A DNA stretch of 64,000 nucleotides from a virus (Duplodnaviria > Heunggongvirae > Uroviricota > Caudoviricetes): IMG/VR virus record IMGVR_UViG_2740892439_000009. One strand, written 5' to 3'. The notes under the pieces are model-generated. The model saw only the letters and a program-made list of their open reading frames with translations, did no database searches and had not been told where the DNA came from. The translations under genes were made by a program, and so were the position numbers. Of the stretch, positions 27,703-42,938 are shown in pieces. Within the stretch, counting starts at the first letter, position 1; each line of letters begins with the position of its first letter.

Positions 27703-27830
27703 CACTCAAGGTAATCTTGAATCATCCTGCTTAATGATGTAGATTTAACCAACAGCTGACGATGTCGTCAGCCGTTAGACCTGAAAAGGTGCCGCAATGA
27801 CATTCAATTGTTAACGGCTAAGGTGGAAAC

Positions 27831-28223
27831 ATGCACAACGCACTGAACGCATCCCGTTCTATACAAACGATCCGTGATTGCACGAGCGTTATTGAGACTC
27901 ATGTGCTGGCTCAGCACAAGATTGAAGTCCGTAAGCTCAACAATGACGCGGTTGATCTAAAAGACACTCGCTTCATCATCACCTTTAAAAATGATGTTGA
28001 GAAGCCGTGTGCCAGCGTAAAGCCGTTAGCGGAAGCAATCTTCCTGAACGGACGTGTACGTTTTGTCGTAAAACCTGATAAGCAATACCCTGAATTTTTG
28101 CGTCATTTAAAAGAGTTTTCTGAGGTGATAGAACATTCTATTCGTCGCTTCGTACTTGGTCATGGTAGCATTAGTAGTCATGTAAAGGCTGATAGATCTG
28201 CTACCAAATGGCTCCTACACTAG
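27831..28223 (+). CDS. Hypothetical protein (accessory gene)
   Basis: 130-aa ORF; 16-nt overlap with the next ORF. Confidence 0.4.
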   Translation: MHNALNASRSIQTIRDCTSVIETHVLAQHKIEVRKLNNDAVDLKDTRFIITFKNDVEKPCASVKPLAEAIFLNGRVRFVVKPDKQYPEFLRHLKEFSEVIEHSIRRFVLGHGSISSHVKADRSATKWLLH

Positions 28224-28960
28224 ATAGCTCATACTCTAAAGATCTTAGCGAGTTTCCTCATAAAGGGGAGACTCTTGTATCTCGTTTCGGTTACATAATC
28301 AACGAAGCCTCTCTCTTCAAAATTTCTGAAATCACCATTGTTGATCCCGAAGATGATATAGTTTTGTACACCCGGATAGAACGGGTTGGTGCGCTTGATC
28401 AGGATCAGTTGATGGAGTTCATCTTGGACAAGGCTGATGACGATATTCCTGAAGAGGATATCATCAGAGAACTTCTTCGCTCCGGTATAATCGATGAAAG
28501 CAAAAATTCTATAGTAGGCAGAATTGCCTTGCGAGAATACAGCTTCGTTGAAGATGGAAATGAGGTTGAATGCTACCAAGTGGCAGGTGTTGAGACTGTG
28601 AAAGCTATTCGTCAGAGAGGGCTGTGCCATCGCACATACCTGTTCTTGCTTCACTGGTACGAACATCTAGTTTGTGACGATATGCAGACAATCCCTGGTG
28701 CTAAGATCTGGGCAGGGCCTCTCATGCGAACCGGCGATGTGCGTATATACAATGCCAAAACAGAAACGTTCGAGGATGTGTTAGGTGAGTACGGGATGGG
28801 GAAAGAAACCGGATTTTTGCCGTGGAACAGAGGATTGTTGCTTGATGCAGAGTTAAGCTCTTGGCTCCCAAACAAAGTGCAAGTTAACGTTCAGAAATTT
28901 ATCGTACTTATCATCTCCCGCAAAACAAGAACTCCAGTAGGTTTATACCTAAAAGATTAA
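28208..28960 (+). CDS. Hypothetical protein (accessory gene)
   Basis: 250-aa ORF, acidic; followed by terminator. Confidence 0.45.
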   Translation: MAPTLDSSYSKDLSEFPHKGETLVSRFGYIINEASLFKISEITIVDPEDDIVLYTRIERVGALDQDQLMEFILDKADDDIPEEDIIRELLRSGIIDESKNSIVGRIALREYSFVEDGNEVECYQVAGVETVKAIRQRGLCHRTYLFLLHWYEHLVCDDMQTIPGAKIWAGPLMRTGDVRIYNAKTETFEDVLGEYGMGKETGFLPWNRGLLLDAELSSWLPNKVQVNVQKFIVLIISRKTRTPVGLYLKD

Positions 28961-28965
28961 AAATA

Positions 28966-28989
28966 AGGCGACTTTGGTCGCCTTTTTTG
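28966..28989 (+). terminator. Rho-independent terminator
   Basis: GGCGAC ttt GGTCGCC followed by TTTTTT. Confidence 0.6.
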
Positions 28990-29136
28990 TTAACAGCCAT
29001 TGATTCTCGCCTAAAAATTCTAAGGCAGCACCTACCATTTAACCTTTACACCACAGCCGTAGGCATTTAGGCTATATCACATATAAGAAAACAAGTTGTT
29101 TCAGACGATAATTATATACGCAAAGGGAACTCTCCA

Positions 29137-29805
29137 ATGACCAAGATCTTTGTGGTTGGCGGCACAAAGGGCGGGCCTGGCAAATCCACCGTTGCCCAGC
29201 AAATTGCCGTTTGCCTGAAAGTCAAAAAGAAGAAGAAGGTTTATATCACCGATATAGATATTCAGCGCACGACAACGAGCTGGTGTGAAGACCGTCGACA
29301 GAACGAAGACCTTGAGCTGATTCCTTTTGCATACGTTCAGGATGACATCATTAAGCACCTAAAATCGCTTCAGGGTAGAGCTGAGTTTGTAGTGGTAGAT
29401 GCTGGTGGCTTCGACTCCGAAATTCAGCGACAAGCGATGCTGATGGCTGACGTTATCATTATCCCGCTGCGTCCTAAGCGTCGTGATTTGAAATCTTTAC
29501 GTGACATCGATCCTATTATCGACAATGTTCGCAATGTAAACGATAAAGTGAAGGTCCGCGCGGTCATGAACCAGTGCCCGGCTTTGCCATCACAAGTGTC
29601 TCGCATTCTGGCGGCTAAAGAGATTGTCGAGACGTTTGGCATCGAGTCTGCGCCAGTCAATCTATATAACCGCAACGTCTACGATGATGCGGAAGAGTCT
29701 GGTCGTTCTATCTTCGAAATGACCGGTAGCGAGCGCGACAAAAAGGCGGAAGCCGAGTTTGAAGAATTTGTAGATTATCTGTTGAGTCTGGAGGAAGAAG
29801 AATAA
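29137..29805 (+). CDS. parA: ParA-family partition ATPase (small type)
   Basis: Deviant Walker A GGTKGGPGKST; 222 aa. Confidence 0.75.
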   Translation: MTKIFVVGGTKGGPGKSTVAQQIAVCLKVKKKKKVYITDIDIQRTTTSWCEDRRQNEDLELIPFAYVQDDIIKHLKSLQGRAEFVVVDAGGFDSEIQRQAMLMADVIIIPLRPKRRDLKSLRDIDPIIDNVRNVNDKVKVRAVMNQCPALPSQVSRILAAKEIVETFGIESAPVNLYNRNVYDDAEESGRSIFEMTGSERDKKAEAEFEEFVDYLLSLEEEE

Positions 29806-30164
29806 TGTCCATGAAAATGGGTGACCTAGCAAAGCGCAAAGAGCCTGATGCACCGGCTAAGAACACAACTCCTTTGCGCCAACCAGTCAGACCACAAGGA
29901 CGCCCGACTCGTGGCAAAGAGAAAATTAAAAGCCGCACCATGTCACTGGAAGACGAATACTTCGAGCTTCTGGAAATGATGAAGTTTATCCCTCGTTTCG
30001 AGAAGTTCACCCGCTCTGATGTGATTCGTGCTGCTATTTTCCATCTGGCAGAGAAGTCGCCGCAGGAAATCGAGGATATCGTGAAACTTAACGAGGCGAT
30101 CACTGCTGCCGACGTCACGATGCGTACCGATGAAATCAAACGCGAGTTGATGAAGAAAGGTTAA
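29805..30164 (+). CDS. Putative centromere-binding partner of ParA (ParG-like)
   Basis: 119-aa basic N-terminus, start overlaps parA stop. Confidence 0.45.
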   Translation: MSMKMGDLAKRKEPDAPAKNTTPLRQPVRPQGRPTRGKEKIKSRTMSLEDEYFELLEMMKFIPRFEKFTRSDVIRAAIFHLAEKSPQEIEDIVKLNEAITAADVTMRTDEIKRELMKKG

Positions 30165-30208
30165 TTTTATTGAGGTGCTGCTTGGCACCTCTTTCTATAG
30201 GTTCCCTA

Positions 30209-30928
30209 ATGCTCTACAAATATATTGGAAGTGAAGATTCGCAAAAAGTGTTACGTAACCTCAAACGGTTTGTAGAGGACGGCACTATCTCTGCTAGCGC
30301 ACCTTCTTCATTCAACGACCCATCAGAGTTCAAAGTTTCGATAACGATGGGAGGTACAGAAGTGGAGCGCCGGAAACACTTTGAAGACAATGGATGTAAG
30401 GATTTTTCCTTTGAAGACTGGGATGCTGTAGCTCCTGAAGCTGCAAAATCGTTGGCTGTGGATTTGCGGAAAGAATCATTAGGGGCTTTTGGTGTGGTGT
30501 GCTTGTCACCAAACGAAGATAACATCTTGATGTGGTCACATTACTCAGTGTCGCATAAAGGTTTCTGCATAGGCTTTGATGATGATTTTGTTACCTCTAT
30601 TGAGGGGTATCACAGCTTTGATAATGTGAAATATATACCTTCTGTTCCCGTGTTCGATGAAGTTACAGATGAGTTTAAGGTACTTTTTGATAAGCTCTTT
30701 TTCTACAAGCACGAATGCTGGAAATATGAGGAAGAACAAAGGGTTATTACTAAAAAAATAGGCGCTCAGGCATTTGATAAGAAATATATTAGAGAGATCA
30801 TTCTTGGACATAACGTTTCTCCTGAAGTAGAAGAATATGCCCGGACACAGCTAGACACGAGCATCGAGGTTTACAAAATGAGTACACCTGATGATGGTTA
30901 TCTTCTTGTCAAAGAAAAGCTGAAGTAG
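30209..30928 (+). CDS. DUF2971-family protein
   Basis: SFNDPSEF and LMWSHYSVSHKGFCIGFDDDF motifs; AT-rich gene. Confidence 0.6.
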   Translation: MLYKYIGSEDSQKVLRNLKRFVEDGTISASAPSSFNDPSEFKVSITMGGTEVERRKHFEDNGCKDFSFEDWDAVAPEAAKSLAVDLRKESLGAFGVVCLSPNEDNILMWSHYSVSHKGFCIGFDDDFVTSIEGYHSFDNVKYIPSVPVFDEVTDEFKVLFDKLFFYKHECWKYEEEQRVITKKIGAQAFDKKYIREIILGHNVSPEVEEYARTQLDTSIEVYKMSTPDDGYLLVKEKLK

Positions 30929-30994
30929 CTCCAGACTTTCCTCAAATGATTATGTTGGGCGCTTTTCTTATTGAACTGGTTAGTGAGGCTAATA

Positions 30995-32167
30995 ATGGAT
31001 TTGTTCTCAACCAAAATAGCAAAAAACAAGCTGCACGAATCTTTTAAACAGATTTATCAAGATAATACATATGCTCCAGTAAGAGAAGTGATACAGTCGT
31101 GGGGGCGTGGGTTACTGGAGCGTAGCGGTGAGCAGACTAAATTCGTTAAAGAGTTTCAGACAACCTTCAATTCCGCCTTATGGGAATTGTATCTGAACGA
31201 AATGTTTATTCGTCTCGATTATTCTGTCGACTACACAAAAGACAGTCCCGATTTCTGTGTTACTACACCGTCAGGCTACCAGTTTAACGTCGAAGCTGTG
31301 ATATCAGATCGGCCACATAATCCACCTGCAGGTGCTCTTTTTAGCGAATCAAAATTCAAACATCAATCAACGCTAAAATTAATCGGAAAAATCAAAGACA
31401 AACATGATCTTTTTACAGGAGTTAATGGCAAAAAATTCCCGTACTCTACGATGTCTCATGTAGTTAATAAGCCGTTTGTTCTGGCGCTTGCACCCTTTGA
31501 CTCCGATTTATCATTGTCTCAAAATAACACAATCATCAATCGAGTGTTGTTTGGCATTGAGGAACCTACCACCAGAAATTTGGTGACTGGCAGCCAAACT
31601 AAAGTTACCTCAATCAAAAAGAATGAAGACGTTGAAATTCCATTAGGTATATTTACTAACGACTCATATAAAGAAATAAGTGCGGTTATTTTCTCCACCA
31701 CCGGCACTTTTGGAAAAGCCGTGGTTCAAAGCGGTATCGGTAGATATGTAAGGTCAACACGATATCGAGCCATTGATGTGAATGATTTCATCGCCAATGA
31801 AGGGATGAAAAACGAGGGAAAGCACACACAAAGGATAGGACCTGATCATTTCATCACTACATATCGGCATTTTTTAAATAACGAAGTCACTGGTGCGGAT
31901 ATTGTAGTTTGCCATTCCACTGCTCATGAAGAGACGCACTTTGACGGCCTTCATATTTACTACAATCCTTTTGCGACAGTGCCACTGGACAGAAATATTT
32001 TCTTCCCCCCAGAGATAACTCATAATTTTTACGATATGGAAAAAGAACAGTCTGTTCAGAATCATCCTGATGGAGCGCTGGTATCTAGACAGGTTTTTGA
32101 ACCAACTAGAGCACATTTTAGGTATATCATGAAACATTGGTTTCCAGGCTTTCTAAAAGATGTTTAA
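30995..32167 (+). CDS. Hypothetical protein downstream of the DUF2971 gene
   Basis: ATG 30995 after TGAGG; AT-rich; no recognisable motif. Confidence 0.45.
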   Translation: MDLFSTKIAKNKLHESFKQIYQDNTYAPVREVIQSWGRGLLERSGEQTKFVKEFQTTFNSALWELYLNEMFIRLDYSVDYTKDSPDFCVTTPSGYQFNVEAVISDRPHNPPAGALFSESKFKHQSTLKLIGKIKDKHDLFTGVNGKKFPYSTMSHVVNKPFVLALAPFDSDLSLSQNNTIINRVLFGIEEPTTRNLVTGSQTKVTSIKKNEDVEIPLGIFTNDSYKEISAVIFSTTGTFGKAVVQSGIGRYVRSTRYRAIDVNDFIANEGMKNEGKHTQRIGPDHFITTYRHFLNNEVTGADIVVCHSTAHEETHFDGLHIYYNPFATVPLDRNIFFPPEITHNFYDMEKEQSVQNHPDGALVSRQVFEPTRAHFRYIMKHWFPGFLKDV

Positions 32168-32355
32168 GCATCCTGCTGGTTGAATTTGGAACCTGCTTCT
32201 GTATATAAATACTAAGTTACTTATTATTATTTATACGGAAGCAGGTCTTTTTCTATGCCAACTTCCCAGACACATTCCCTTCCGTTTCCACTTCCAAAAA
32301 CTGCCACCAGTCGCTATCATCCGCTCATTGCAATAAGTAAGTAACTACCTATCGG

Positions 32356-33105
32356 GTGAGCCACATGAGCCAAATCTTTTTTGATACCATTGACAACGAC
32401 CAGTACGACTTCATGACAGAGTGGAATACCGCTGTTATGGACAAGTGGGTCGCTGAAAACATTGGTTTGTCGCGCTGCAAAGACGAGGCTGAACTCTTCG
32501 AGACGAAGTGGTTTGATTACCGCGATATGCATCCTCTCATGGCCACCTGTCTGTTTACGGAGGCGTACAAACGTCAGTACTCAAATATCATGCTGACGCA
32601 CGGTCGCGAACACTTTGAAACAGCTCCGTTCACCACCGGGTTAAAACGCCTGCCTTATCAGGAGTTGTCGACTGCCAATAAAACGTCGCTATGGAAAGCA
32701 CGCCAGTTTGCTGATCGCTATTGCTGTTCATACGACTACTTTATCTCCACGGTTCTTTCCGCAGCTGCACGGCGTCTGTGGGACAAGTTGCCGCGCCCAC
32801 AGCATTTATGGCAGCCAGAACTGATTGAGATATTCGAAGAGAAATTATCCAGACGCGCAACAACCCGTCTGGATGACTCTCTGGTTAGCTTTAAGCATAT
32901 GGGAGACATGCAGTTCAACCCGATTCAGGAAAGCTATTTTGAGTGGATTCTGGAGCGTTTGCGCATCATCCCCCGCAGCAAGCGCATACGCGCAATTTTC
33001 TCTGCTATCTGGCTAATGGAAATCGTTCCAGAGCGCCTTATTTCCGCCCACTTTCCAGAAGAACTGGAAGAAGCACGGCGGTTTATTGATCCCCTATCTA
33101 ATTAA
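32356..33105 (+). CDS. Hypothetical protein upstream of helicase
   Basis: 249-aa ORF. Confidence 0.45.
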   Translation: MSHMSQIFFDTIDNDQYDFMTEWNTAVMDKWVAENIGLSRCKDEAELFETKWFDYRDMHPLMATCLFTEAYKRQYSNIMLTHGREHFETAPFTTGLKRLPYQELSTANKTSLWKARQFADRYCCSYDYFISTVLSAAARRLWDKLPRPQHLWQPELIEIFEEKLSRRATTRLDDSLVSFKHMGDMQFNPIQESYFEWILERLRIIPRSKRIRAIFSAIWLMEIVPERLISAHFPEELEEARRFIDPLSN

Positions 33106-33148
33106 CTAATACTAGAAAACAATTTGTTTAAAAAACAAAGGAAAGCAC

Positions 33149-34087
33149 ATGACCGAACTTTGCCATACAGGACGCGGGCTGTCCGAAGAGTTTGATGAAG
33201 ATTTCCAGAACAGACTGACGGCATATTTTTGTCGTGATCACGAGTTTCTTACTCGTGCGGGAGATCTGGTTGTGCCTAGCCAATTTGCCAATGCGGCCAA
33301 TGCCATATTGGTTAATATGGTTTCGGGCTATTACCGTATGTACAAGAGCGCGCCTTCTTCATCTGCGATTCTGGATATGCTTAAGCGCGCGAAACGCGAT
33401 AAGACCATCCGTGAGGAACTCTTCCCGGATGTTGTTGCTGCGTTTAAGCGCATCCTTGCAGAAAAATTGTCTGATACCTCGTACATGGTTGACCAGGTAT
33501 CCACATTCGCAAAAAGTGTAGCGTTTGATGATGCTCTGATTAAAGCTGCTGAACTGAAAGAGAAGGGCGACTTTCAGGGGGCGATGGCAATCATGGCCAA
33601 GGTTCAGCAGATAGGCTCGAACGAAGCGACCGGAATCTATGACTACTACACCTCCGCAAGTGAGCGATTGAAAGCGCGTGAATATGAGGCTTCAGAGGAG
33701 TATGTGCCAAACAGCATTACAACTGGACTCCCTCTGCTTGATAGATTGCTGTACCAAAAAGGCTGGGCGAAGCGTGAAATGGTGCTCTTCATGGGGTTCG
33801 CTAAATCCGGTAAATCGACCGCAATGGGTGAGTTTTCCATAAACGCAACACTTGCTGGCTACAATGTTCTGTATCTCTCGCTGGAGGTTCACACCACCAT
33901 TTTATCCGACCGTTTTGATGCAAGATTGTCGGAGACAGAAATGTCCAGGCTGGTGGAACGGCGCGATGAGGTTCATCGTAAGTTGGCAGAGTTGGGAGCA
34001 CGAAGGGGATTGGTAGTTTGTGGGTGGTTGAGCGTCCGTCAGGAAGTATGTCACCGGCAGATCTGGACCGTATGCTTAACAGCATGA
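33149..34087 (+). CDS. DnaB-like replicative helicase, N-terminal segment with Walker A
   Basis: GFAKSGKST Walker A; continues in another frame. Confidence 0.6.
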   Translation: MTELCHTGRGLSEEFDEDFQNRLTAYFCRDHEFLTRAGDLVVPSQFANAANAILVNMVSGYYRMYKSAPSSSAILDMLKRAKRDKTIREELFPDVVAAFKRILAEKLSDTSYMVDQVSTFAKSVAFDDALIKAAELKEKGDFQGAMAIMAKVQQIGSNEATGIYDYYTSASERLKAREYEASEEYVPNSITTGLPLLDRLLYQKGWAKREMVLFMGFAKSGKSTAMGEFSINATLAGYNVLYLSLEVHTTILSDRFDARLSETEMSRLVERRDEVHRKLAELGARRGLVVCGWLSVRQEVCHRQIWTVCLTA

Positions 34088-34488
34088 AAGCCAACGGCAT
34101 GGTGCCTGATATGGTTGTTGTCGACTACGCAGATTTGATGCGTGCCAGTTATGACCTTCGTGATGATCGCGCCAACATTCGTAGTATCTACACCGATTTA
34201 CGTGCTCTTTATGACAAACATAACGTTGCTGGAATCACGGCATCGCAGACAAACCGTGAAGGTGGCGCGTCAGAAGTTGCCACAATGATGCACGCCGCCG
34301 ACAACATCGAAAAAGTACGTATTGCTGACCTGGTAATAACGATCAACAAAACCGAAGAAGAAGAAGCGAAAGGAGAGGCTCGTCTCTACTTTGCTGGTTC
34401 ACGTAACCAGCAGGGAGGGATCAGCATTCGTGTTAAACAAAACCTCGAACAAATGCGCTTCATTGAGCGAATCTTAGACGTTACCTAA
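34018..34488 (+). CDS. DnaB-like helicase, C-terminal segment
   Basis: MVVVDYADLM Walker B-like and ITASQTNREG motifs; overlaps previous ORF by 70 nt in a different frame. Confidence 0.6.
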   Translation: MWVVERPSGSMSPADLDRMLNSMKANGMVPDMVVVDYADLMRASYDLRDDRANIRSIYTDLRALYDKHNVAGITASQTNREGGASEVATMMHAADNIEKVRIADLVITINKTEEEEAKGEARLYFAGSRNQQGGISIRVKQNLEQMRFIERILDVT

Positions 34489-40779: not shown

Positions 40780-40803
40780 AAAGGGGCTTCGGCCCCTTTT
40801 CTT
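40780..40803. terminator. Bidirectional rho-independent terminator
   Basis: AAAGGGGC ttcg GCCCCTTTT flanked by T/A runs on both strands. Confidence 0.6.
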
Positions 40804-42014
40804 CAAAAAAGTTTTATAAATTCATAATTCTGGTCAATTAAGGATTCAATACACACCATGCAAAAATCTACATCGTCAAAATCAGGTGTGTAATATTCAT
40901 CCTCATAACATTCATTTAGACCTTCAATCAATTTTTCTTTAAAAACTCCCCACGTTTCAATATGAACCATTTCCATATAAGGCGCATGTGTATGTGCTTG
41001 CAATACATCCCAGGTGTCTATAACCTCGATCCGCGGCTTGCAATTAATTTTTTCTAAATATGCCTTCCCAGAATTGTAAATTTTCGACATTGATGCCCCA
41101 AAACCTGATGGTTGGTAATGAGTGTAAATGTCATAAATTTTTTGTCCTATTCTAGGGAGTTGAGAAGCATTGGATATTTGTGGCGAATGAAAGTATCGCT
41201 CTATGGAAGAAAACGCAGAAACATTAACTAGAGTAATCGTATATGGCGCTAAAGTTCTCTCATTCAAATTTCTACATAAAATAGCAAACCCATGGCTATT
41301 AGTCTTTTCACCGTCTGAGGACATTTTTGCCATGCTGGCTTTAATAACATTCAATTTCGAATGTAAACGAGAAGTTGAAGTCGGTTTATTATACATTTCA
41401 TCATCATACAAACATATATGAAACCCACCAAGATGACGAAATGAGAACTTGAGTGCTTCTTCCGCAATAACTAATTTATTAATATCTAAAGGAGTAAGTG
41501 ATACGTTACCTTGTAAATCATAGCAAGGTTCTAAACATAGAAAGTTTTTCTTCTGCCACACGATCATATTAAAAATAAAGTGTCTAACCAGGGGTGGCCA
41601 GTCAGGTGATATAAGTACATTGGTAATATCTCCATCAGACAAGTATGACAAGTAACTTTTTAGTTCCGCAGCATATGCCACCAACTCAGTTCCAGCTTCC
41701 CTTGTTGGTGTTGAAAAGTTTTTTAACTCAATAAGAACTAAGGATTCATTCTCTGTTGAATAAGCAACAACATCAGGTCTTAATATCTCAGATTTTGTTG
41801 CTGAGATATTCTCATCATCTGTCATTAAATGTAACAATGTTATGTTCTTTAAACAAAACTGATAACTCTCCTTAATTTTTTTCTCTTCGGGTCTTTTCGG
41901 ATTAAATTCGTTTAATTTATCAATATTGATGATTGAATTATATAATCCATCTTGATCAGATAATTTGTCAATTATCCAATTTTGCATTTCCTTTTCGCTT
42001 AAAAATATTGACAC
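40803..42014 (-). CDS. Candidate defence effector: 403-aa protein with putative PD-(D/E)xK nuclease motif
   Basis: RPDVVAY ... LVLIELK arrangement in N-terminal third; GTG start preceded by GGGAG; markedly AT-rich. Confidence 0.5.
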   Translation of the reverse strand: MSIFLSEKEMQNWIIDKLSDQDGLYNSIINIDKLNEFNPKRPEEKKIKESYQFCLKNITLLHLMTDDENISATKSEILRPDVVAYSTENESLVLIELKNFSTPTREAGTELVAYAAELKSYLSYLSDGDITNVLISPDWPPLVRHFIFNMIVWQKKNFLCLEPCYDLQGNVSLTPLDINKLVIAEEALKFSFRHLGGFHICLYDDEMYNKPTSTSRLHSKLNVIKASMAKMSSDGEKTNSHGFAILCRNLNERTLAPYTITLVNVSAFSSIERYFHSPQISNASQLPRIGQKIYDIYTHYQPSGFGASMSKIYNSGKAYLEKINCKPRIEVIDTWDVLQAHTHAPYMEMVHIETWGVFKEKLIEGLNECYEDEYYTPDFDDVDFCMVCIESLIDQNYEFIKLF

Positions 42015-42040
42015 TAATTAGGCTCCCGTTAAACCAAAAA

Positions 42041-42862
42041 TTAAAAATCTTGCTTTACTTTATCCATGGTCAGAATTTTGCTAATAATTGAAGATTCAAA
42101 TCCATCTAAACCTGAGAGAAAGTTAATTAGCTTTTGGATATGTTGTTCTTTAGGTATAAGTATATATTTTATATCATTGAACTCAAAATCAATGCCAAAC
42201 TTTGAAAATTCTGAGCTAATTTTTGCTTTGTCATCAGAAGTGATAACACGCTCCAAACTCAGACTAGGCCATAAATCACCAATAAAAGGAGCTGGCACAT
42301 AACGCCACTCTTTCTCGTCTGCATATATATAATTCTCTATTGTTTTATTATCTTTTCGCTCTAGCTTGCCTCTGTAATTTTTCATATAACGCAGTAAATT
42401 ATATAGATCAGAGTATTCTGCTTTCAATTTCTCAAACTCTATTCTGTTTTTGGTATCTAAATTTCCTCTAGCCTTCCAAAGCGGCACCAACTTATTTTTA
42501 ATAAGTCGAATTCTGGCATTGTATTTAGAAAATATTTCACTACTCTTATTCATATATAGAACTGGGTGTAGACCTTTCTTTTCCGCCCAAGACTTAGTTA
42601 GCCCAAGACCGAATTCTCCATATTTTCCGCTATGATCTCTGATTTGTGATAGTTTTATGTCACAAAACGATACCATTGGTACTGCAAACCTCCTACGTCC
42701 CCCGACTCCTCTTATTTCCTCGCGAGCAAGAAATGGTTTAAAATATTTCTCAGCCAATATGCTATAGAAAGCATCTTCGTTTTTTGTAAAATGAAACAAC
42801 GTGGTTGGATGAAGACTATAAACAGATTCAACATTCGCATCAGGATTTTCAAGGATAGTCAT
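42041..42862 (-). CDS. Candidate defence partner protein (about 273 aa from ATG; track ORF extends to 42907)
   Basis: ATG (MTILENPD) preceded by AGGTG; LFHFTK...YG.FGLGL motifs; AT-rich; co-oriented 26 bp upstream of the 403-aa gene. Confidence 0.5.
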   Translation of the reverse strand: MTILENPDANVESVYSLHPTTLFHFTKNEDAFYSILAEKYFKPFLAREEIRGVGGRRRFAVPMVSFCDIKLSQIRDHSGKYGEFGLGLTKSWAEKKGLHPVLYMNKSSEIFSKYNARIRLIKNKLVPLWKARGNLDTKNRIEFEKLKAEYSDLYNLLRYMKNYRGKLERKDNKTIENYIYADEKEWRYVPAPFIGDLWPSLSLERVITSDDKAKISSEFSKFGIDFEFNDIKYILIPKEQHIQKLINFLSGLDGFESSIISKILTMDKVKQDF

Positions 42863-42938
42863 TTTACACCTTGTGGAAAGCCAGTTTAGTTCTGTAAATA
42901 GTATCACACGACAGGCGGCTATTCTTCTATCAATAAAT

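Follow-up and report, generated by a model that had tools for sequence, protein, structure and literature searches.

DUF2971 and PD-T7-5 genes in a variable cargo slot of an SSU5-type phage-plasmid of Escherichia coli

What do two adjoining genes do between the partition genes and the replication module of a viral genome, and do they do it together? The question is raised by a stretch of 64,000 nucleotides from a virus of the Caudoviricetes (IMG/VR record IMGVR_UViG_2740892439_000009), called here the window, in which an earlier note, made from the letters alone, had described a DUF2971 gene and an uncharacterised 390-aa gene as an accessory, defence-type insertion. Its sequence relationships place the window among the SSU5/pSLy3-type phage-plasmids of E. 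coli. Region 27800-33200 matches 584 PLSDB plasmids, mostly non-mobilizable and ~105-125 kb in size, from Escherichia, Klebsiella, Enterobacter and Salmonella, and also phages SSU5, Cyrano and CMS-2020a; the closest match is pECAZ155_2, with 99.9% identity. The features of the locus are as follows.

29137..29805, + strand: ParA-type partition ATPase (Pfam MipZ, AAA_31, CbiA and ParA; phrog_164, ParA-like)
29805..30164, + strand: 119-aa protein (phrog_5111, E 4.5e-80) in the ParA partner position
30172..30191, + strand: hairpin with an 8-bp stem, dG -13.5 kcal/mol, z -3.1, and a U-poor tail, UUUCUAU
30209-30928, + strand: ORF A, 239 aa, ATG start; DUF2971 / PDC-S31 protein
30929..30994, + strand: A-B spacer, 66 nt, with a GAGG ribosome-binding site at 30985-30988
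30995-32167, + strand: ORF B, 390 aa; PD-T7-5 family, with a predicted N-terminal restriction-endonuclease-like module and a beta-rich C-terminal domain
32191..32247, no strand assigned: palindrome of ~56 nt followed by a U-rich tail, dG -24.2 kcal/mol, z -5.7
32356..33105, + strand: phrog_2500 protein (E 8.4e-113), opens the replication block and forms the conserved right flank

Families of the two genes

The assignment of ORF A to DUF2971 is upheld by Pfam, in which PF11185 matches residues 108-179 with 30.1 bits against a gathering threshold of 22 (E 1.3e-6). One of the two motifs first named for it, FNDP.E, is present as FNDPSE from residue 35; the other, given as MWSHY..HKG, does not stand as written, three residues rather than two lying between Y and H (MWSHYSVSHKGFCIGF begins at residue 108). 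In PADLOC, the best PDC-S31 model covers residues 2-234 (E 4.7e-38), and three more PDC-S31 models also match, making four PADLOC models in all. In PADLOC, PDC-S31 has the status of a candidate system, and no papers on it were found in a literature search. The PDC-S31 model resembles DarT-type ADP-ribosyltransferases, and a published prediction places DUF2971 among the ADP-ribosyltransferases (ARTs), as a relative of DarT and AbiGi (PMC12522546). ORF A shows the marks of the DarT/Tpt1-like ADP-ribosyltransferase superfamily, namely a predicted ART fold, a Tyr motif and Glu-x-Glu. ORF A is a predicted DarT-like ADP-ribosyltransferase and a candidate single-gene abortive-infection module.

ORF B begins exactly 66 nt downstream, the distance first given for it, when it is read from the ATG at 30995 that RefSeq relatives use; the mechanical ORF list uses an upstream TTG at 30971. 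Its description as a protein without recognisable motif holds for Pfam, which finds no domain even at E<=10, and for NCBIfam, which has no family for ORF B nor for ORF A, but it is no longer uncharacterised: PADLOC places it in PD-T7-5 (PDLC04110; E 1.6e-138, 459.5 bits), residues 1-370 of 390 aligning with profile positions 2-342 of 346. PD-T7-1 (PDLC04073) matches residues 1-240 with its positions 109-347 (E 1.1e-41). AbiGii or HEPN identity was considered for ORF B and rejected, no match being found in Pfam at E<=10 or among the PADLOC AbiG models. For both genes, then, profile searches return defence families (the candidate PDC-S31 and the validated PD-T7-5), not housekeeping ones. No relatives of either family were found among solved structures by sequence search.

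A functional selection in E. coli brought PD-T7-5 to light as an anti-T7 system consisting of one gene (Vassallo et al., 2022, Nat Microbiol; PMC9519451). The protein tested by these authors is RRM82777.1, and the validated clone, for which protection of E. coli against T7 was reported, contains only the 390-aa ORF with ~143 nt upstream and ~119 nt downstream (PMC9519451, Table S1/S2). The label “nuclease” was given by the authors on weak HHpred matches (Hjc, 78% probability, residues 63-107; PMC9519451). A weak restriction-endonuclease-like signal is found in ORF B around residues 60-107, and residues ~1-245 are predicted to form a restriction-endonuclease-like module. An exhaustive phmmer search with ORF B returned 750 cluster representatives at E<=0.001. 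Among the best 150 of these, most share only residues 1 to ~245 of ORF B and lengths differ, which suggests that in the wider PD-T7-5 family a conserved N-terminal effector is joined to a variable C-terminal domain.

Both families were already known, since PD-T7-5 had been reported via DefenseFinder in clade J SSU5 phage-plasmids of E. coli and Shigella (bioRxiv 10.1101/2025.09.12.675607) and identical entries of the ORF A and ORF B proteins are numerous in databases. Further PD-T7-5 alleles are found in a P4-like satellite and next to P2-like genes, and ORF B is 76% identical to a large E. coli P4-satellite cluster (P0037).

A slot between partition and replication genes

The AT-richness of the block is confirmed by its GC content, 40.6% in ORF A and 39.6% in ORF B against 47-48% in the neighbours (48.2% in the partition genes, 47.6% in the replication genes) and 47.4% in the whole window; the low GC of both ORFs points to a foreign origin. 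The block does lie between the partition genes and the replication module, with ParA and the 119-aa protein, whose position suggests a partition (ParB-like) role, on the left, and the phrog_2500 gene, followed by the DnaB-like helicase and primase of the replication module, on the right.

The edges of the block were located by pairwise blastn of the window against alternative alleles. On the left, shared DNA ends at 30164-30172 in most alleles, and it extends to 30194 in an allele with PD-T7-5 only (L092) and, in Cyrano, as far as 30232; the variable slot has its left edge at the stop codon of the 119-aa gene, and parA DNA, kept in every allele compared, is part of the conserved left flank. 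On the right, homology restarts at 32191/32192 in all alleles compared. The variable slot is about 30165-32190. In every allele compared, the inspected empty one among them, the palindrome at 32191..32247 aligns with its own reverse complement, and it bounds the slot on the right as a terminator-like element. It stands directly after the stop of the 119-aa gene in the empty allele, L102, which indicates that cargo has entered between the partition operon and the probable terminator of that operon. The hairpin at 30172..30191 closely follows the partition operon, leaves 17 nt to ORF A, and may act as an attenuator or a weak terminator.

Related loci were gathered from IMG/VR with the downstream phrog_2500 protein as anchor, giving 80, of which 74 contain both flanks. 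Apart from one locus with a disrupted gene, 13 distinct slot contents are found in the 74.

PD-T4-3-like GIY-YIG gene, minus strand: 25/74 loci
Uncharacterised 351-374-aa gene, minus strand: 13/74 loci, one with the ORF split or disrupted
KAP NTPase (PDC-S49): 6/74 loci
Empty slot, 192-208 nt: 5/74 loci
Divergent DUF2971, minus strand: 5/74 loci
DUF2971 alone: 4/74 loci
DUF2971 and the uncharacterised 351-374-aa gene: 4/74 loci
Two SSU5 hypotheticals and DUF2971: 3/74 loci
DUF2971 and PD-T7-5: 2/74 loci
PD-T7-5 alone: 2/74 loci
Uncharacterised pair, 250 + 140 aa: 2/74 loci
SSU5 hypothetical pair alone: 2/74 loci
Uncharacterised 225-aa gene: 1/74 loci

Besides PDC-S31 and PD-T7-5, the cargos include three PADLOC families. 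The 351-374-aa protein, which is present in 17 loci (13 on its own, 4 with DUF2971), the 250 + 140-aa pair and the SSU5_035/036 pair have no match in Pfam or PADLOC, and they are obvious candidates for new defence genes. Sharp breakpoints, conserved flanks and swappable, mostly defence-type cargo are the features of a mobile-element defence hotspot, and on these comparisons the slot at about 30165-32190 is a hypervariable one. Among complete E. coli genomes carrying the backbone marker, the exact cassette of ORF A and ORF B is found in 13 of 247, its carriers being plasmids of ~111-112 kb with one exception of 240 kb. The accessory, defence-type character claimed for the block, and the variability among related genomes that had been proposed as its check, are both borne out.

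Two modules or one system

Family membership, the variability of the slot and the independent occurrence of each gene are established. DUF2971 stands alone in the slot in Cyrano and others, and PD-T7-5 stands alone in a Salmonella allele (P0047) and in two further loci (L156/L157). Compared with the Salmonella allele, the window has a clean extra segment of 796 nt, 30195-30990, which carries ORF A. Since either gene can fill this slot without the other, the pairing of ORF A with ORF B is not obligate. The block is probably best read as two autonomous single-gene anti-phage modules stacked in one phage-plasmid defence hotspot.

We infer both enzymatic activities, their triggers and activity in the present host along the following lines. 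The N-terminal restriction-endonuclease-like module of ORF B would probably cut invading phage nucleic acid, while its C-terminal domain, variable across the wider family, probably determines recognition. Upon infection, ORF A would probably ADP-ribosylate, with NAD+ as donor, either nucleic acid or a factor of transcription or replication; phage genes would then no longer be expressed and the infected cell would be sacrificed, an outcome that has been reported for lactococcal Aristaios. The gain of the plasmid-prophage would be that its host, and hence itself, is shielded from competing lytic phages.

There is a more elaborate reading. The two genes might form one cooperative system with an AbiG-like layout, in which an ART-like protein is encoded upstream and a nuclease-like protein of ~390 aa downstream, one sensing for or regulating the other, or the two acting as toxin and antitoxin, so that jointly they broaden or gate defence. 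Lactococcal AbiG is a true two-gene system (PMC13064643), DUF2971 and AbiGi have been described as related ART-like families (PMC12522546), and close PD-T7-5 alleles repeatedly have an ART-related gene directly upstream on the same strand. In close Enterobacterales alleles (73-80% identity) this upstream gene has 228-242 aa and ends 64-85 nt before PD-T7-5, and it is often from an ART-related family, DUF2971 in phage-plasmids and AbiGi in prophages. DUF2971 is directly upstream in the window's own ORF B cluster of >90% identity, as seen from consecutive accession numbers, and matching carrier-sequence lengths, the only basis for it, suggest the same pairing for alleles 76% identical in ORF B and ~54% in ORF A. 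AbiGi (PADLOC E 7e-28) precedes PD-T7-5 in a Proteus lambdoid prophage, two Yersinia prophage contexts and two metagenomic contexts. A 64%-identical homologue of ORF B, in locus L185, follows a 239-aa gene that looks ART-like by eye (STS and ENE motifs) and has no Pfam, PADLOC or PDB match.

The transcription signals allow such a unit. No terminator is found in the A-B spacer, whose folding does not surpass that of shuffled sequence (z +0.9), nor was a convincing promoter seen that would belong to ORF A alone; ORF A and ORF B may therefore be co-transcribed. A promoter-like site, a consensus match only, lies at 30852-30879 within the 3′ end of ORF A. An arrangement that recalls the proposed layout is also present elsewhere in the window, at 40803-42907 on the minus strand, where a second AbiGi-like gene precedes one of 403 aa that has a PD...ELK motif. 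The 403-aa protein (40803-42014) was itself tried as a relative of PD-T7-5 and rejected, with an hhalign probability of 0.2%.

Nevertheless, a cooperative system is unlikely for this block. PD-T7-5 was validated as a lone cloned gene (PMC9519451) and DUF2971 acts alone as Aristaios (PMC11381338); in the slot itself each gene occurs without the other, and DUF2971 also pairs with the unrelated 351-374-aa gene on the opposite strand. The absence of an AbiGii or HEPN signal from ORF B counts against it as well, as does the comparison of the ORF A family with AbiGi by hhalign, in which no more than a motif of 19 residues aligned, with a probability of 14%. Among the prophage cassettes the AbiGi proteins share 81-96% identity, which indicates one ancestral linkage event, that is, one cassette lineage and not several. 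Farther afield, 79 distant PD-T7-5 loci of 28-60% identity, from Pseudomonas, Rhizobiales, Vibrio, cyanobacteria, Firmicutes and others, were searched with an HMM built from 61 DUF2971 sequences, and a DUF2971 gene lies within 6 kb of none of them (0/79). A same-strand upstream gene ending within ~320 nt is present at 39 of the distant loci; 37 of these genes were scanned against Pfam, and AbiGi or DUF2971 was found in none (0/37). An obligate pairing of an ART-like gene with PD-T7-5 is ruled out by these counts as a general rule.

Two independent associations of an ART-like gene with PD-T7-5 remain, which are suggestive but not strong, and for this recurrence a functional link fits less awkwardly than chance. 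Taken to its full extent, the idea would be that ART-like proteins (DUF2971 or AbiGi) and PD-T7-5 constitute an unrecognised cooperative defence architecture, a Gram-negative counterpart of AbiG. This is rather improbable; if it were true, the ART-like partner encoded upstream would act as gate or sensor for the downstream effector or would widen its range, and the single-gene activity of PD-T7-5 would be only part of its native function.

The cassette might instead serve the plasmid, as an addiction toxin or by excluding competing plasmids or related phage-plasmids, and so stabilise inheritance. Since the slot has the partition genes immediately upstream and, downstream, the terminator-like palindrome that they would share with the cargo, + strand genes in it may be expressed along with the partition operon. 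Toxins often have ART or nuclease folds, and a separate variable slot just upstream of parA holds a KacT-type toxin-antitoxin in phage Cyrano. Yet Pfam scans and the ORF list showed neither a macrodomain nor a small ORF adjoining the cassette that could be an antitoxin-like partner, the alternative cargos of the slot are of defence type (PD-T4-3-like, KAP/PDC-S49), and the PD-T7-5 family has a measured anti-phage phenotype (PMC9519451). Moreover, the slot is empty in five loci, so that its cargo is dispensable for maintenance. A plasmid-serving role is very improbable on this evidence.

A core or housekeeping role of the two genes in replication or partition of the phage is hardly credible and already contradicted by the slot survey, for although DUF2971 is frequent here (18/74 loci, and ~260 PLSDB plasmids of this size class), it is absent from 56/74 loci and PD-T7-5 from 70/74, some slots are empty, identity among DUF2971 alleles is only 39-52% where that of the flanks on the same elements is 80-98%, and one divergent DUF2971 allele is on the opposite strand.

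Meaning and likeness to known systems

The finding of two defence-type genes in an exchangeable slot is real, but the families are largely known, that of ORF B as already T7-protective and that of ORF A as a candidate. Relative to the papers searched, what is new is the base-level definition of the slot as a hotspot, the list of its cargos and the recurrence of an ART-like gene before PD-T7-5. Two genes of a common clinical E. coli phage-plasmid lineage, hitherto “hypothetical” or “DUF”, are now placed in defence families, and a cargo slot in which phage-plasmids swap anti-phage genes is defined to the base. The recurrent ART-like gene raises the question of cooperation between “single-gene” systems. 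It matters to phage therapy and to plasmid epidemiology that phage-plasmid cargo alters which phages a host resists.

ORF B is closest to the reference PD-T7-5: it matches the family model over its full length, it has the same 390 aa (validated ORF of ~1173 nt) and the same weak restriction-endonuclease-like signal at ~60-107, and it too is carried by a mobile element. It differs in its carrier, a phage-plasmid slot by the partition genes, and in the DUF2971 gene immediately upstream. With PD-T7-1, from the same study, ORF B has the N-terminal module of ~240 residues in common, whereas PD-T7-1 has an extra N-terminal region and another C-terminus, and ORF B fits PD-T7-5 far better.

For ORF A the nearest validated system is Aristaios, an abortive-infection system found on lactococcal plasmids that consists of one DUF2971 gene (Grafakou et al., 2024; PMC11381338) and interferes with phage transcription (PMC13064643). 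The DUF2971 domain, predicted ART fold, single-gene layout and plasmid location are the same in ORF A, while Aristaios has 316 aa and a Gram-positive host and ORF A has 239 aa, the two being likened by family and not by alignment. From DarTG the locus differs in that Pfam scans find no DarG macrodomain near ORF A, whose neighbours are the 119-aa protein and ORF B, and from solved DarT proteins ORF A differs in having no sequence-level similarity to them and in its large helical inserts.

The layout of Lactococcus AbiG is matched in outline, a protein of ~240 aa from an AbiGi-related family being followed by one of ~390 aa, and true AbiGi genes do precede close PD-T7-5 alleles in prophages; in contrast, ORF A matches only DUF2971/PDC-S31 and not AbiGi (PF10899), and ORF B only PD-T7-5/PD-T7-1. 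Finally, the slot has in common with other mobile-element hotspots its conserved flanks, interchangeable defence cargo and sharp breakpoints. What distinguishes it is that its carrier is an extrachromosomal phage-plasmid and that the cargo is exchanged between a partition operon and a terminator-like palindrome.

Genes stacked with PD-T7-5 homologues

Homologues of the PD-T7-5 family protein ORF B are also found behind other genes. In four loci bearing such homologues (designated by L-numbers, with coordinates within the locus), an AbiGi gene is followed, after a gap of 64-85 nt, by a homologue with 75-77% identity to ORF B:

L087:5187-7176, AbiGi then PD-T7-5 homologue
L088:5249-7182, the same cassette
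L180:1749-3673, the same cassette
L182:200-2123, the same cassette

This two-gene cassette is mobile: it is found in a lambdoid prophage of Proteus, in Mu-like and P2-like prophage regions of Yersinia, and beside ScoMcrA-like genes. Other genes stand upstream of further homologues:

L183:1513-2454, (+), PD-T7-5 homologue (67% identical), 46 nt downstream of a Lit-like Peptidase_U49 gene
L185:1444-2163, (+), gene for a 239-aa protein, upstream of a PD-T7-5 homologue (64% identical)

The former is another same-strand stack of defence genes. The L185 protein has no match in Pfam, PADLOC or PDB, and its STS and ENE motifs, seen by eye, recall R-S-E ADP-ribosyltransferases; a likeness to these enzymes may be taken as a tentative lead.

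Unassigned cargos of two variable slots

The slot between the partition operon and the replication genes also harbors other cargos in related loci:

L113:3662-4735 (-), L172:3692-4816, L167:1262-2317, and also in L163, L166 and L169, gene for a 351-374-aa protein
L085:2899-4066, (+), 250- and 140-aa gene pair with overlapping ends
L002:2637-3681, (+), SSU5_035/036 pair (214 and 136 aa)

The 351-374-aa protein, the second commonest cargo (alone in 13 of the 74 loci, with DUF2971 in four), is a candidate new defence gene, with no match in Pfam or PADLOC, nor, for the L113 member, in NCBIfam. Neither gene pair gave a hit in Pfam or PADLOC.

The window has another variable slot, with the lysis genes on one side and parA on the other:

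27831-28960, (+), two overlapping ORFs of 130 aa (phrog_2594) and 250 aa (phrog_3307)

Both ORFs lack a match in Pfam and PADLOC. Homology to this stretch is absent from many relatives, and in the related phage Cyrano their place is taken by genes for a KacT-type toxin and its antitoxin.

A split helicase gene

33149-34488, DnaB-like replicative helicase, broken near 33998 into ORFs of 312 and 156 aa

The intact counterpart in pECAZ155_2, the plasmid that best matches the region 27800-33200, is 446 aa. The gene is split because a single C is missing (GGGAG-CACG versus GGGAGCCACG in pECAZ155_2). Either the sequence is wrong at this base or a true frameshift has inactivated a gene essential for replication.

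A second AT-rich block, with an AbiGi-like gene

40803-42907, (-), AT-rich block (34% GC), 288-aa AbiGi-like gene then, after 26 nt, a 403-aa gene

The 288-aa protein matches a PADLOC-confirmed AbiGi (BLASTP E 5e-14). The 403-aa protein contains an RPDVV...ELK nuclease-like motif, and no Pfam domain is on record for any of its homologues listed; a homologue with 46% identity adjoins a P2-like integrase, with no AbiGi. Profile comparison shows no relationship to PD-T7-5, ruling out a relative of that family. The layout of the block is the same as that of the pair of ORF A, the DUF2971 protein, and ORF B.
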